Origin: Bdellovibrionales bacterium
GTDB taxonomy: Bacteria > Bdellovibrionota > Bdellovibrionia > Bdellovibrionales > UBA1609
Length of the DNA: 64,000 nucleotides
Direction: 5' to 3'
Assembly (NCBI GenBank): GCA_050246815.1
Contig: JBFWVI010000005.1
Coordinates: 32,001 to 96,000 of the forward strand
The notes under the pieces are model-generated. The model was not told the DNA's origin and made no database searches. It was given only the letters and a program-made list of their open reading frames with translations. Both the position numbers and the translations under genes were made by a program. Positions 33,087-37,996 of this stretch are shown here, one piece after another (position 1 is the stretch's first letter; each line of letters opens with the position of its first letter).

Positions 33087-33157
33087 AAATCCCCTGAACT
33101 AAAGCTTGCTGCCGTTTAAATTTGTTTTTGAAAACCAGATAAGAATTAGCATCTAAT

Positions 33158-33442
33158 TTATGCACTTGTCGAGAGTTTGGGGCCAGCCCAAAACCCTCGA
33201 GTTGCGGCGCGTAAAGCGTCCCCAGCGGAAGCGTTTGGAAATTGGTGAGACAGGGTTTCTTTCGCACGCTGCAGATCCCTTGCCGTTTCCGCGTAAAGAT
33301 TCATGGAGTGGCGCGTCGTTTCTGCGTCCACCACGACGGTGCACTCGGGCGGCAAAGACTTTGCGGCTTCCAGAAAAAGACCAATCAGGATTCGCTCGGC
33401 TTGCACAGATTTATTCTCGATTTTTTCGACCACGTTCATCAT
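33158..33442 (-). CDS. Small hypothetical protein (94 aa)
   Basis: Protein-like composition (MMNVVEKIENKSVQAERILIGLFLEAAK...); weak RBS. Confidence 0.45.
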   Translation of the reverse strand: MMNVVEKIENKSVQAERILIGLFLEAAKSLPPECTVVVDAETTRHSMNLYAETARDLQRAKETLSHQFPNASAGDALRAATRGFWAGPKLSTSA

Positions 33443-33450
33443 CTGTTTTA

Positions 33451-33600
33451 CGATTCCCAGACTGCCGATGAATTGATGTCACTTCTGCGTTGAATTGAGT
33501 TTTAAGTTTTGACCTGTGCACGCGCTGCCCCTTCACTTGCGCTAACCGTACCACGCGAAGCTTCGCCATCCTGGCCGTCCGAGCTTCGATCTGGGAACCG
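33451..33600 (-). ncRNA. Candidate structured leader or small RNA
   Basis: Closing stem CGGTTCCCAGA/TCTGGGAATCG (G-U favours the minus strand); inner CGAAGCT/AGCTTCG enclosing GCC-AGGAT-GGC. Confidence 0.4.
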
Positions 33601-33699
33601 ATTTTTCTTTTTTGGTTCCGCAGCGGAACCACTTTTTGATCGTTAATGGGAAAATTTAATTTCTCTCTCTAAAAATCGACAAACAATTTCACTTTTCCA

Positions 33700-33728
33700 T
33701 TGGAAATTCCGCCGTGATCGTTTATTCT
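33700..33728 (+). promoter_or_regulatory. Putative sigma-70 promoter of the small-ORF locus
   Basis: TTGGAA-N17-TATTCT. Confidence 0.5.
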
Positions 33729-33756
33729 TCAATCACTCTATGAAAGGAGGTCAGAC

Positions 33757-33879
33757 ATGGTGAATACATTTTCAAAATTGCCGATTGATTGCGGCGCAAC
33801 AACTCGTAGCGGAATGATTCCCGATGGAATCGCTCGACGTGGACTGACCTCGATTGCTCTGCCATTCTCGCATTGCTAA
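33757..33879 (+). CDS. 40-aa micro-ORF (below the ORF-track cutoff)
   Basis: Perfect RBS AAAGGAGGT; MVNTFSKLPIDCGATTRSGMIPDGIARRGLTSIALPFSHC. Confidence 0.55.
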   Translation: MVNTFSKLPIDCGATTRSGMIPDGIARRGLTSIALPFSHC

Positions 33880-34075
33880 ATCCCCTGTCAGCCTAACGAG
33901 TTAGAACGATTTTAAAGGTCATTTTTTGACCTTCGGGCCTGAGGTTCGTTAGCAAGACGCGCTTCGCGCTTGAAGGTCTGACTTTGACTTTTCAAAAGTT
34001 TGTGTGCCCGCGATTCGGCTTGGGTCGAATTGCATCGCGCTTATAAATAAAAATTATTTATTAGGAGATTTTAAA

Positions 34076-34315
34076 ATGAAACTAGCTAAAATGAACTATG
34101 GCGTACCGATACTTTGGTTCGCCGCGAACGAAAAAAGAAATTGGCGGGTTTTGGCTCAGTATCCCCTGCTGGCCGCCCGACTGATGGTGCAAGGTGCAAA
34201 TTTGTTCTTTGGTTTATTCCAAGGGCAAGTCGTCCGGGTAGTGGGCCCGGGCATACCACCGGAACCCTTCAATGCCGTTGACCGAGTCCAGTGGCCGAAC
34301 GCATGGCCACACTAA
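34076..34315 (+). CDS. 79-aa small hypothetical protein
   Basis: RBS AGGAG in an AT-rich context; MKLAKMNYGVPILWF...GPGIPPEPF...WPNAWPH. Confidence 0.55.
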   Translation: MKLAKMNYGVPILWFAANEKRNWRVLAQYPLLAARLMVQGANLFFGLFQGQVVRVVGPGIPPEPFNAVDRVQWPNAWPH

Positions 34316-34376
34316 TTCGTCCATCCCCTGGCGAAATGGCTCGGGCCGACGCGCATTGTATCCTCCCTCACATTCG

Positions 34377-34415
34377 CAAGGGGGCAGCCCCACTCTGCCC
34401 TCTTGTTTTCTCTTT
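34377..34415 (+). terminator. Intrinsic terminator closing the small-ORF transcript
   Basis: CAAGGGGGCAG-N7-CTGCCCTCTTG followed by TTTTCTCTTT. Confidence 0.7.
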
Positions 34416-34493
34416 CGTACCTGTAGCGACACCACGGCTGTCGAACAAAAAATGGCATCATAACGGCGCCTTTCCCTTATAAACGAGCCTTCA

Positions 34494-34509
34494 TGGTACA
34501 CAACCTGCA
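34494..34509 (+). promoter_or_regulatory. Putative sigma-54 promoter giving a near-leaderless mRNA
   Basis: TGGTACACAACCTGCA (GG-N10-GC); predicted +1 near 34520, ATG at 34522, no SD. Confidence 0.5.
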
Positions 34510-34521
34510 CTCTTTATCTGC

Positions 34522-37500
34522 ATGTTGAAAGTGCGCGCATTTTTCTTGTTTTTAAGTCTGCTTTTGGGATGGGCCCAGCTGGCCCTGGGTCAAAACGGGC
34601 CGGTTTCGCCCACCCTCGAGTCCCTGCGCCTCACTCATACAATTTACGCCGGCCTGCTTGAAGCCTACAAAAGCGAAGGCCAATCGGATTACCACCCTGA
34701 GTTCCTAGCTTATCGCGCTTACTTTAAAACCTTTTTGGCCGATTGGAATCAGGCTCTTGAATCGGGGCAGGTGCGAAACAGCCGGCATTACTGGCAATCC
34801 GTCAAAACGCGCGACACCTACCTGGGTCGCTTTTACTCCGTTTGGCAAAGAATCCACCCTTACGATGCCGGCGCCACTGGGCAAATGATCAACTTGGGCC
34901 ATTACCGCAATAGTTTTTTGACCCAAGTGGTCAACTCGGAGACCCAAAAAAATTATGAGCAGCGTCTGGAGCTGATTTTGAACTGGGCTGATCAATTTTT
35001 AATTCAGACCAACACTGACGTGGAACTTGGAATTAGAATCGTCAGTGCCTTTCGATTTCATAAGGACCCCCACATTCGCGAACAATCGCGACGAATTATA
35101 GCCTCAAGCCCTCGCTTTGCGAAAATCGCAAGCGGTTTGATTTTGCTGCGCGATCTAACCTTGCTTTGGCAGGCCGGCTTAAAATCAATCACATTACCGC
35201 CCAAAATGACGGCAGGAATTTCAAGTCACGCCCACCAATTCAAAGGCCCTTTGGATAAACTGCGCGCACTATGGCCCAGGGAGCTCTTCGGTAAAATCCC
35301 CACGATTTGGAAAGCCGGCGCGACCTCTGTCGCCGCCCATGGCGCGATCATCGCCACACCAAAATCAACACCGTCCCCCATCAAGATTGAAGTGGACCAC
35401 ACTGATTATCCCCACGTTTTTTTACTGACAGCCCTACGCGCAAACCTGTTTCAGGTTGAAACTGCAGACAACGATCTTGTGGATTTTAAGCCACAAACCT
35501 TTGCCTTCAAACTTGATCGGTGGCGACAAAAAGGGGTTGCGGTCATCAAAAACCCAAAGACCGATTTGGACTGGTCACAATTCTTTCTGGAAGGCGAATT
35601 GCTTTTGAACTTTTGGCAAGGCAGTCGCGAACTGACCGCCGCGACCTCGCTGCAGGCCTTACAAAACTCACAAAAGCATTTTAGCGCAATCCCACCTGGC
35701 GCTATCGAAACCTTTCGAGAAAATTTGCTCACCCATATTTTAAAAGATTATCGTGGCAAACGACGAACATTAACAGGTCTTTTTTTGGACTGGGGCGGCA
35801 ACTGCGTTTCACAAACCCTGGCCACAATTTCATATCTAAAAAAATACCCTGGGCTCATTCCCGCCGGGTATCAATTGGGTGTGGCCCATGTGCCCAATCA
35901 CATGGAAGCCGTTCTTATGAACGATCAAGAGATTTGGTTTTTGATGTCCGGAAAAAAATGGCTGAATGATCAGTCCATCACGGTTTTACGCCCCGAGTCC
36001 CTGATTGCACGCGCCCTTGGCGCGACTGGCGCCAACACCCCAATCTCGCTGGCCGATTTTTATTTGGCGGGCAAGCCCGATCATATCCAGCAGCAAAAAG
36101 TGCCAGCGAACACGCATATGCTTCTTGAAAAAGTCGACAATTCTTTCTCAGAAAGCGGCTTGGCTGGTGGCCTGGGACGCCTTTTTGCTTTTAAACACAT
36201 CCACAAATTTCCGAGCAGCACGCCCGATTGGGCTGAAATGCGTTACGCGCGCAGTAGCGATGAAATTCGTAAGGCAAGTGCCGAACAAAACGGCAACTTA
36301 GATCTTGGCTTTACGTTTAGCTCATTGCTCAAAACAAAAAAAACCGATGAACCGGGCATTCGCTACTTAGTGCGCGACGTCACTATGGCGGGCACAAAAA
36401 TAAAACTTTGCCTTATCGAAAACTCTGAATTCCCCCCTGTCAGATATTCTGAGCTGCCGTGCCTTTACACAGGTAAAAGGAATAAAACCGAATTAATCAC
36501 CAAACTTATCAATATCAGCAGCAACTCTTCTTGGTGGACACACAGTACTGACGTGTTTAATAGCGTTTTCATCAGTGTGCCGCCAAGCTCTTTCGACCGA
36601 TTAATGGCCATGCCGCCCGAACTCTGGCTGTTAATGAGTCTGCACGATGGCTTGGATGAAGTTAAAACCAAACTGCTCCCCGAAGTTTCCGATGCGGCTG
36701 TGGCGCGCATTCAAAGCGGCCGGCCAGTCGCGCAGGACGCAAAGATTGTGGAGGCCCTTGCTCATCCCGTCTTTAACCCAAGTGGCGAAGTTCTAGACGC
36801 CTCCATAAACTGGCTTTACATGTTTCCGGACGAACTTCATAAGCTACTTTTGACCCTGTGGCCATCTGGTCAGATGGCTTCGTCCAAAAAAACGCGCGAT
36901 TGCTATAACTATAAATTGTGCGCGCCAAGCGCCTGGCAGCACAATTATGAATACCTCGAACAGATCACACGAAGCAGCGTTTCCAAGCTGGAACCATGGA
37001 CTTCTTCAAAATCCTTCGCACAGCTGAAGAACTTTAGTCTTTTTCTACAGCAAATTCAGACTTACACATCTCGACATGAAGCCTTACCCGAGTTTTTTCG
37101 AATGTACCCGCATTGGCCACACCCTTTTCGTTGGACCTTCGTAAAAATCTGGAGAAAACTTTTTTTGGGTTCGTCCTCACTTTTCTACGTGGCGCAGATG
37201 CGCGAATTCTTAAACTCTTTGGATCCGAATAAAATTCAAATTGCAGATATAAAAAGTCTCAACCCTGGCCAGCAGGCCAGCTGCGTGCCAAGGTCGATTA
37301 ATTTACCCATTCGCACTAATACCCCAAGCGTTCACACCCTGGGCCCGATCGTGAACCACCTGCTCACTTGTGACGAGGTCGATTTGCACAAACAAGGGAC
37401 AGATCCTTCGTCCTTAAACATGAATGATTCAAAAATGCTGGGGCAATCCAACCCTGAAGTTTTGGATCCACTCATTCTTGCAGAATTATCTTTGGCGTTT

Positions 37501-37788
37501 TCAGGGGGAGTCCATCTTTGGAACAATCTGGTGTTTGAGCGGGTCAAAACATTTGCCCCGATGTGGGCACAAGCGGGCATTGCGCCTGTTTCAAGTGTGC
37601 AAGCTGATCCTATAGACGCGATTTTTCCCCATTATGCCCGAGAGACTGTGCGCCGCTATAATTGGACGGCGATCTACCGGCAAGCTGCTGAGGCCGTTTA
37701 TGAAGTTTTGCCTCGGGCGATCAACTATCGACCTGTTCCAACGAATCCTCGCCCGCCACAACATCAAGCAGACACTTATTGTGACTAA
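34522..37788 (+). CDS. Large secreted protein with a transglutaminase/papain-like Cys-His core
   Basis: 1088 aa; signal peptide; GGNCVSQT...PNHMEAVL. Confidence 0.7.
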   Translation: MLKVRAFFLFLSLLLGWAQLALGQNGPVSPTLESLRLTHTIYAGLLEAYKSEGQSDYHPEFLAYRAYFKTFLADWNQALESGQVRNSRHYWQSVKTRDTYLGRFYSVWQRIHPYDAGATGQMINLGHYRNSFLTQVVNSETQKNYEQRLELILNWADQFLIQTNTDVELGIRIVSAFRFHKDPHIREQSRRIIASSPRFAKIASGLILLRDLTLLWQAGLKSITLPPKMTAGISSHAHQFKGPLDKLRALWPRELFGKIPTIWKAGATSVAAHGAIIATPKSTPSPIKIEVDHTDYPHVFLLTALRANLFQVETADNDLVDFKPQTFAFKLDRWRQKGVAVIKNPKTDLDWSQFFLEGELLLNFWQGSRELTAATSLQALQNSQKHFSAIPPGAIETFRENLLTHILKDYRGKRRTLTGLFLDWGGNCVSQTLATISYLKKYPGLIPAGYQLGVAHVPNHMEAVLMNDQEIWFLMSGKKWLNDQSITVLRPESLIARALGATGANTPISLADFYLAGKPDHIQQQKVPANTHMLLEKVDNSFSESGLAGGLGRLFAFKHIHKFPSSTPDWAEMRYARSSDEIRKASAEQNGNLDLGFTFSSLLKTKKTDEPGIRYLVRDVTMAGTKIKLCLIENSEFPPVRYSELPCLYTGKRNKTELITKLINISSNSSWWTHSTDVFNSVFISVPPSSFDRLMAMPPELWLLMSLHDGLDEVKTKLLPEVSDAAVARIQSGRPVAQDAKIVEALAHPVFNPSGEVLDASINWLYMFPDELHKLLLTLWPSGQMASSKKTRDCYNYKLCAPSAWQHNYEYLEQITRSSVSKLEPWTSSKSFAQLKNFSLFLQQIQTYTSRHEALPEFFRMYPHWPHPFRWTFVKIWRKLFLGSSSLFYVAQMREFLNSLDPNKIQIADIKSLNPGQQASCVPRSINLPIRTNTPSVHTLGPIVNHLLTCDEVDLHKQGTDPSSLNMNDSKMLGQSNPEVLDPLILAELSLAFSGGVHLWNNLVFERVKTFAPMWAQAGIAPVSSVQADPIDAIFPHYARETVRRYNWTAIYRQAAEAVYEVLPRAINYRPVPTNPRPPQHQADTYCD

Positions 37789-37996
37789 AATTTCCAACCA
37801 AAATTTATCGAATCCAAAAGAAAAAGTTATACAGGTCATAACAGATTTTGTGTAAGCGAAATTAAGCGACGCTCAAGCTAGACCTTCGCCCAGTTTATAA
37901 AACCACTCGACCTTTTGCTGGTTTCAAATCGGAACCAAAATATCATCGCAGATGTCCATGAATAGGACTTTTTAAAAAACCCAATGGAGGGGATAT

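Follow-up and report, generated by a model that had tools for sequence, protein, structure and literature searches.

What is achieved by a 40-codon open reading frame (ORF) whose Shine-Dalgarno (SD) sequence can be closed by pairing within its own transcript? The question is raised by a locus in the window, the stretch of 64,000 nucleotides analysed here, which belongs to a Bdellovibrionales genome of 3.4 Mb as its contig C5; the locus is flanked by the end of nuoB, in the NADH dehydrogenase operon, and by a gene for an S8 protease. The original prediction had proposed an undescribed RNA-switch/micropeptide system. All of the sequence strings on which it relied were found in their places, and its core stands as an undescribed, conserved micro-ORF with a pairing-locked SD, whereas the micropeptide does not stand as a conserved product, its sequence not being conserved. 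A second conserved small ORF (ORF2) and a terminator continue the unit, and the micro-ORF is therefore its leader. The leader/ORF2 unit is a real feature and a member of an undescribed family, and it is probably an undescribed variant of leader-ORF control. The reading favoured here, with a probability of about 0.5, is that the leader, a short ORF carrying the complement of its own ribosome binding site, acts as a translation-sensing latch controlling the small gene behind it.

The attack-to-growth switch of Bdellovibrio is poorly understood at the RNA level. The unit provides a leader that is unannotated and covaries strongly; it occurs in the cultured Bdellovibrio bacteriovorus ahead of a gene which is apparently highly growth-phase induced, and reporters can thus be applied to it without delay. 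Should the latch model be true, bacterial regulation would gain a leader design that locks itself without a ligand, and synthetic biology a compact part.

In attenuator and arrest leaders such as trpL, tnaC, ermCL and secM, a short leader ORF is followed by hairpins and U tracts, and these by the regulated gene. Unlike these, the window family has neither a run of regulatory codons nor a conserved arrest motif; its conserved helix traps the leader's own SD, and a small protein is encoded downstream. In another well-known arrangement mok overlaps hok, whereas the two ORFs of the window family neither overlap nor abut, and antisense promoters are not enriched. The likeness to hok/Sok (with its mok leader) and Ldr/Rdl consists of a regulatory leader ORF before a small protein, SD sequestration and a 3' terminator (PMC8594479, in part); the window family differs in that its lock lies within the leader's own coding sequence and its ORF2 is only partly hydrophobic. 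Coding-region anti-SDs which pair with their own SD are described for Helicobacter pylori aapA3 (aSD2) and Escherichia coli gnd (PMC6733600, in part). The aSD2 of aapA3 is a short metastable hairpin at toxin codon 9, in contrast to a covarying helix of 7-16 bp near the end of a non-hydrophobic leader. The unit would work like leader-peptide control, and it appears to have SD sequestration in common with type I toxin mRNAs; since tested defining features of both classes are lacking, it is filed under neither.

Layout of the unit

The window unit consists, from 5' to 3', of a sigma-70-type promoter, a very strong SD, a 40-codon leader ORF with an anti-SD in its 3' half, a spacer with hairpins and U-rich stretches, a 79-aa ORF2 and a terminator (Table 1).

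Table 1. Features of the leader/ORF2 unit, in window positions.
Feature	Position	Strand	Details and basis
Predicted sigma-70-type promoter	33700..33728	+	-35 TTGGAA 33700-33705, 17 nt, -10 TATTCT 33723-33728; from sequence
Conserved 5' motif and leader SD	33735..33751	+	…CTCTAT-GAAAGGAGGT; G081 identity, 67-locus conservation, 16S match
Leader ORF, 40 aa	33757..33879	+	Translation predicted; frame open in 67/67 loci
Internal anti-SD	33838..33851	+	CTGACCTC 33844-33851 pairs with 33747-33754; 33838-33841 pairs with 33756-33759 (start codon); 12 bp, -18.4 kcal/mol
Spacer hairpins	33915..33978	+	33915-33933; long G-U-rich hairpin 33933-33973, extendable to 33928-33978; ensemble P 0.4-0.97
Distal second anti-SD (long-range lock), window-specific	33976..33994	+	Ensemble pairing
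Hairpin 34010-34033, A/U hairpin 34043-34061, ORF2 SD AGGAG 34063-34067	34006..34067	+	Fold prediction
ORF2 (79 aa), divergent within an unnamed family of small proteins	34076..34315	+	Helix, then R-x-V-G-P-G-like motif
Closing hairpin with U tract, resembling an intrinsic terminator	34376..34414	+	12 pairs, -20.0 kcal/mol

The predicted sigma-70-like promoter is upheld by identical spacing in the homologous loci G081 and G073, although it does not pass a strict consensus scan. The promoter score is 10.1, against 9.0 in shuffled sequence, and T-T-G/T is enriched at -47 to -44 from the SD (67 loci). The leader SD, GAAAGG(A/G)GG, is complementary to the 3' end of the genome's own 16S rRNA; each of its positions is conserved at 87-100% over the family of 67 loci, and the start codon follows after 2-8 nt.

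No Rfam match above the gathering threshold was obtained in the window (best E 3.7 locally) or in 10 homologous loci. The literature search, in which "Bd3714" was one of the terms and few subscription journals were covered, returned no description of the unit. Scans with short words (18-19-mers) gave no match in a viral collection, 15 chance matches in metagenomes and seven in genome collections, L060 being the sole homologous one; tblastn against phage gave none, a promoter-plus-SD pattern scan stayed at control level, and all Atlas look-alikes remained below 0.9. A retron msr-msd or the end of a mobile element was ruled out by the single copy of the stretch around 33700 in its own genome and by a motif scan in which no reverse transcriptase appeared, and a candidate paralog on contig C22 was excluded as antisense within another gene.

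Distribution of the family

The search for further copies, proposed along with the original prediction, found no relatives by protein and close-DNA comparison at first; the family search then gave 67 leader/ORF2 loci in 66 of 384 Bdellovibrionales genomes, belonging to five of 13 families. ORF2 likeness alone selected 48 of these loci, and all but one of the 66 genomes carry a single copy. A DNA search of 109 genomes of the same family returned one match, in G081, identical to the window at 29 of 30 nt (33721-33750, spanning the -10 box and the SD), and G081 then led to G073. The promoter spacing, the SD and a 35-codon ORF recur in G081, and both loci adjoin a merC-family gene. Among 15 merC loci fetched from the genus g46, 12 have the promoter, the SD, the short ORF and a second ORF of 60-71 aa; the leader is absent from the other three, and likewise from a fourth fragment, L098. 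A profile of the g46 ORF2 matches 14 of 18 genomes of this genus and no others, and supplied a 13th g46 locus; in g46 the same leader stands before a different ORF2. In one g46 genome (L077) a 39-aa, internally shortened ORF2 is found with no leader, and both are missing in L079 and L082.

An order-wide pattern of SD, ATG and anti-SD matched 80 of the 384 genomes, mostly by chance, and yielded five more in-phase leaders from four families; four of their ORF2s have a short motif in common with the 79-aa ORF of the window. Profiles of these ORF2s, with that of the window among the seeds, matched 35 and then 61 of the 384 genomes. Of the 64 places so indicated 59 were examined: 53 have a leader, two lie at contig edges and four are weak matches with in-frame stops. 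Four leaders with a variant SD, including that of the same-genus locus L241, were missed by the pattern and read by eye. Long-gene, out-of-phase or weak pattern matches (five of 47 scored rows were kept), leaderless ORF2 matches and five unfetched places were left out of the 67; the profile searches refer to the 384 sampled Bdellovibrionales genomes and are of limited sensitivity. Neighbouring genes vary (nuoB, merC, UDG-like, LysR-like), and leader and ORF2 are linked at many unrelated chromosomal sites in the five families.

The leader frame and its peptide

A short leader ORF with a strong SD, predicted to be translated, precedes ORF2 in every one of the 67 loci. Its frame is open for 21-63 codons throughout, as against one locus for the +1 frame and 12 for the +2 frame. 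The 40-aa peptide of the window found no relative beyond itself in protein searches and no Pfam match, and two leader peptides of the family are absent from a collection of 15 billion. Across the 67 leader peptides there is no shared motif, no conserved C-terminal arrest motif and no run of regulatory codons, and the ORF2 behind them is no known enzyme. The peptide had been described as not a transmembrane helix; leader peptides reach a hydropathy of 1.6 in only two of the 67 loci. The terminal Cys, given as another trait, is not general. Cys occurs in 51 of the 67 peptides (2.7% of residues) and is absent from most Bdellovibrio copies. A close strain, represented by one 256-nt contig, differs at 10 sites, eight of them listed, one of which alters leader codon 28.

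The lock inside the leader

The covariation check suggested for the helix between ribosome binding site and anti-SD bore out the pairing at 33844-33851: the internal SD:anti-SD helix covaries over the family, across the order, and the window ranks 1/201 against codon shuffles. The duplex is 7-16 bp long and better than codon shuffles (p<=0.05) in 59 of the 67 loci. Just 3' of the SD, each of four positions takes part in pairing in 55-59 loci, with 4-6 pair types, and changes in the SD core are matched on the other arm of the helix (at one position A-U 57, G-C 6 and G-U 3 times). For 46 distinct SDs the native duplex averages -17.2 kcal/mol, against -12.0 +/- 0.4 kcal/mol with partners swapped; the native average was reached in 0 of 20000 permutations, which ignore kinship and so overstate the significance; this permutation was run on 13 loci and then on 67. 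The median duplex energy is -18.0 kcal/mol in the family and -10.5 at 83 comparable SD+ATG sites of the window genome. Furthermore, RNAalifold independently recovered the SD:anti-SD helix in ten Bdellovibrio-type loci, together with a second helix before the ORF2 SD, with two-sided changes in three pairs.

As the helix covaries and the leader frame is always open, and the peptide is not conserved, the proximal lock (33844-33851) is regarded as the family feature. When the RNA ends after the leader stop, the lock has P>0.9 in 58 of 67 loci (1.0 in the window, for an RNA ending just past the stop). In full-length folds P exceeds 0.5 in 41 of 66 loci; for the window it is 0.17, the distal lock being favoured there, and about 0.24 in the ensemble of 33730-34005. 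The anti-SD lies 15-30 nt before the leader stop in 41 of 67 loci. Its codon phase is distributed 48/14/5 over the family, the majority phase being kept despite changes in length; a universal phase, which held in the first 14 of 14 loci, was given up, as only 48 of the 67 follow it.

The combination of a chance ORF with chance complementarity in intergenic DNA would be compatible with the outcome of the first searches, which returned neither a protein nor a close DNA relative, and random sites with SD, ATG and a short ORF do occur in the window genome. It is effectively refuted by the family evidence, i.e. 67 loci, open frames and a covarying helix, and is scarcely credible.

Pairings particular to the window

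The region 33725-34000 folds at -83.4 kcal/mol (z -2.44), a value equalled by 2 of 200 shuffles; the reverse strand has z -1.60, and the leader part alone (33731-33890) is unremarkable (z -1.00). The distal lock (33976-33994) is strong here (P about 0.66 in the 33730-34005 ensemble, p 0.02 against shuffles); over the family, however, a distal SD partner at p<=0.05 occurs in only 5 of 67 loci, about the chance level, and 5'-3' fold-back is hence particular to the window instead of the essence of the system. Pairing of the 5' end with the ORF2 SD was rejected as a candidate, with no covariation (p 0.35).

The hairpin switch proposed at 33893-33994 proved to be window-specific or improbable. Its outer CTAACGA/TCGTTAG helix has a probability of 0.001, its place being taken by the long hairpin at 33933-33973 (P about 0.9 or more). 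The AAGGTCA/TGACCTT hairpin which that helix was to enclose reaches P 0.65, and the alternative GACCTTC/GAAGGTC pairing has P 0.33-0.96 in the 33730-34005 ensemble. Substitutions in the close strain were discarded as evidence of covariation: none breaks a predicted pair at the four paired sites concerned, yet the same is true of 41% of random placements (p 0.41).

Spacer and ORF2

The spacer between leader and ORF2 measures 59-449 nt across loci and 196 nt in the window, and its hairpins at 33915-33978 are not alignable over the family. A hairpin with a U-rich tract is present in 44 of 67 spacers, against about 30% of shuffles, under a lenient rule; the window's own spacer holds no good terminator. 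An A/U-rich stretch plus TTAGGAGA is common to the window and the same-genus locus L241.

The two types of ORF2 have no match in Pfam, NCBIfam or PDB. Their homology was rejected by comparison, the g46 ORF2 being unrelated to that of the window. A protein search with the 79-aa ORF2 returned only itself. Against a leave-one-out profile of 52 others it scores 13.0 bits, with a genome-wide E of 0.45 and rank 3 (both of the higher-scoring matches lie inside other genes), which makes it, by sequence, a weak member of the type II family. Candidate second copies of ORF2 on contigs C80 and C15 were excluded because they lie inside other genes. The model of the window ORF2 is one helix (residues 12-49, pLDDT 69). 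A 19-residue hydropathy mean of at least 1.6 is reached by 25 of 53 type II ORF2s and by none of 13 from g46; the window ORF2 reaches 1.32. In L171, L172, L173, L179 and L184 the ORF2 SD lies within a common TAAAC(A/C)GGAGT motif, presumably resembling a CsrA site.

Relation to Bdellovibrio bacteriovorus

Among the proteins recorded as hypothetical in B. bacteriovorus and other Bdellovibrio are type II ORF2s. Bdellovibrio-type loci contain, in this order, a LysR-like gene, ORF2, a 192-aa gene and a TetR-like gene, the labels being read from the sequences. The gene order of strain HD100 is Bd3712 (LysR), Bd3714 (303 nt), Bd3715 (579 nt) and Bd3718 (TetR) (PMC3627812, Table S1). Bd3714 appears to be the HD100 ORF2, matched by gene order and length only; its GC content is 0.432, against 0.409-0.450 in five fetched ORF2 copies. 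The number Bd3713 is missing from the HD100 table, precisely at the expected position of the leader.

Bd3714 has an RPKM of 20.9 in attack phase and 4644 in growth phase, and is scored as growth-specific, at 190-fold (PMC3627812, Table S1). Bdellovibrio attack-phase sRNAs and merRNA resemble the unit as structured RNAs of the same organisms (PMC3627812, in part); those sRNAs belong to the attack phase, and the screen that yielded them left long 5' UTRs aside. None of the eight coordinates listed there lies at Bd3714.

How the leader may act

Comparison of sequences establishes how the unit is laid out, that the leader frame is open, that the SD:anti-SD helix covaries and that the peptide is not conserved. 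Since the frame stays open and the lock on the leader's own SD covaries while the peptide drifts, it is the act of translation, and not its product, that seems to matter. In the favoured reading, the first ribosome would load on the nascent RNA before the anti-SD, some 40-90 nt into the leader ORF, has been made. A ribosome on the last leader codons would cover the anti-SD and free the SD for the next ribosome, a relay which the geometry suggests, and brisk translation would thereby keep the leader open. With a falling supply of ribosomes the helix would close and lock the leader off. In the weakest step, untranslated RNA would terminate or decay in the hairpin/U-rich spacer, such that ORF2 would be made mainly during fast growth within prey. 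The leader's output on ORF2 is inferred. When the leader was blocked in silico, the ORF2 SD was not shifted consistently (mean unpaired 0.42 free, 0.39 initiating and 0.46 translating, 66 loci), and of 44 loci at most 8 had a spacer hairpin that simulated ribosomes changed by >0.3, the window not being one of them. The different ORF2 behind the g46 leaders, the leaderless ORF2 of L077, the modest probability of the internal lock in full-length folds and a codon phase that is not universal likewise speak against the latch. The growth-phase induction of Bd3714 and the enrichment of hairpins with U-rich tracts in the spacers speak for it, although that induction could be purely promoter-driven. 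Tentatively, and with the odds rather against it, the unit may be a ligand-free, peptide-independent RNA switch in which the ribosome relay holds the leader open as a bistable read-out of translational capacity, turning on a small growth-phase protein as the predator starts growing in prey, with the same latch placed before two unrelated small proteins.

Three other readings were weighed against the latch. A locus of the type I toxin-antitoxin kind, on the mok/hok or ldr plan, would have its leader gate a membrane-active ORF2, perhaps directed at prey or bdelloplast membranes, and would be switched off by an antisense RNA. Type I systems are marked by SD sequestration, a leader ORF and a 3' terminator (PMC8594479 and PMC6733600, both in part), ORF2 is modelled as one long helix, nearly half of the type II members reach the hydropathy mean of 1.6, and the window has a 5'-3'-like second lock plus one reverse promoter-like site (33891-33864). 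Yet the locked SD is the leader's and not that of ORF2, the distance between the two ORFs precludes coupling by overlap, antisense promoter-like sites are not enriched (7% against 13% in shuffles), and the g46 ORF2s are hydrophilic; the single copy per genome, the absence of a phage match and the high expression of Bd3714 in growth also count against a toxin, which is judged unlikely.

The leader peptide itself might be the sensor, as an arrest peptide or by sensing Cys, a metal or redox state, a stalled ribosome then holding the anti-SD. Such a role would suit the frequency of Cys, the D-C dipeptide of the window, the same-genus copy and several g46 copies, the lack of any Trp among about 2200 residues, the closeness of the anti-SD to the stop and the divergent merC-family gene in g46. 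It is opposed by a profile of 12 g46 peptides, which places the window peptide 9th (E 5) with no common motif, by the three codon phases at the helix, and by the variable neighbours; there is no single-codon run, and Cys sensing as a defining trait was rejected on the distribution of Cys. Leader and ORF2 might instead be regulated separately, the lock merely allowing the leader one burst of translation (unless its RNA is released as a small RNA) and ORF2 following the promoter alone, as the inconsistent predicted coupling to the ORF2 SD, the terminator-like spacer signals, which could give a separate short RNA, and an exchangeable ORF2 with its own SD would allow. Against this stand the linkage kept at unrelated sites in five families and the conserved helix with compensatory changes just before the ORF2 SD in ten Bdellovibrio-type loci. 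Both the sensing peptide and separate regulation are likewise considered unlikely.

Further observations

In many relatives nuoB and the S8 protease gene are adjacent, so that about 4.9 kb are extra in the window; this insert (33100-37990), without counterpart in many relatives, contains a 94-aa ORF, the leader/ORF2 unit and a 1088-aa ORF. The 1088-aa protein (34522-37788) has a predicted signal-like start and no Pfam match, and forms an unnamed family with 46 further representatives, which measure about 1000-1200 aa and are 22-40% identical to it. A strain bubble in two runs at 33249-33450, flanked by identical sequence, looks like a recombined tract; its 16 substitutions and indels of net +2 within the 94-aa ORF (33158-33442) argue that this ORF is unconstrained. 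A terminator-like hairpin (33613-33631), with the alternative pairing GGAACC/GGTTCC, lies immediately 5' of the promoter.

Elsewhere, a different motif recurs in several families: AAAGGAGGTGGTG..ATG, opening a 14-15-codon ORF that has GGAGGT inside it (L159, L160, L161, L139 and L121; G000 C69:1687). L146 and L147 have 24-codon leaders with a PPP stretch and the anti-SD in another phase, located before genes of 108 and 115 aa, which may be relatives of ribosome hibernation factors. In one contig of G000, ARAGORN reported two tmRNA genes with different tags, one of them possibly spurious. On the minus strand of G000 C81, at about 1352 from the end read, the SD and start of a 63-aa ORF lie under a 15-bp internal duplex of -29.6 kcal/mol.
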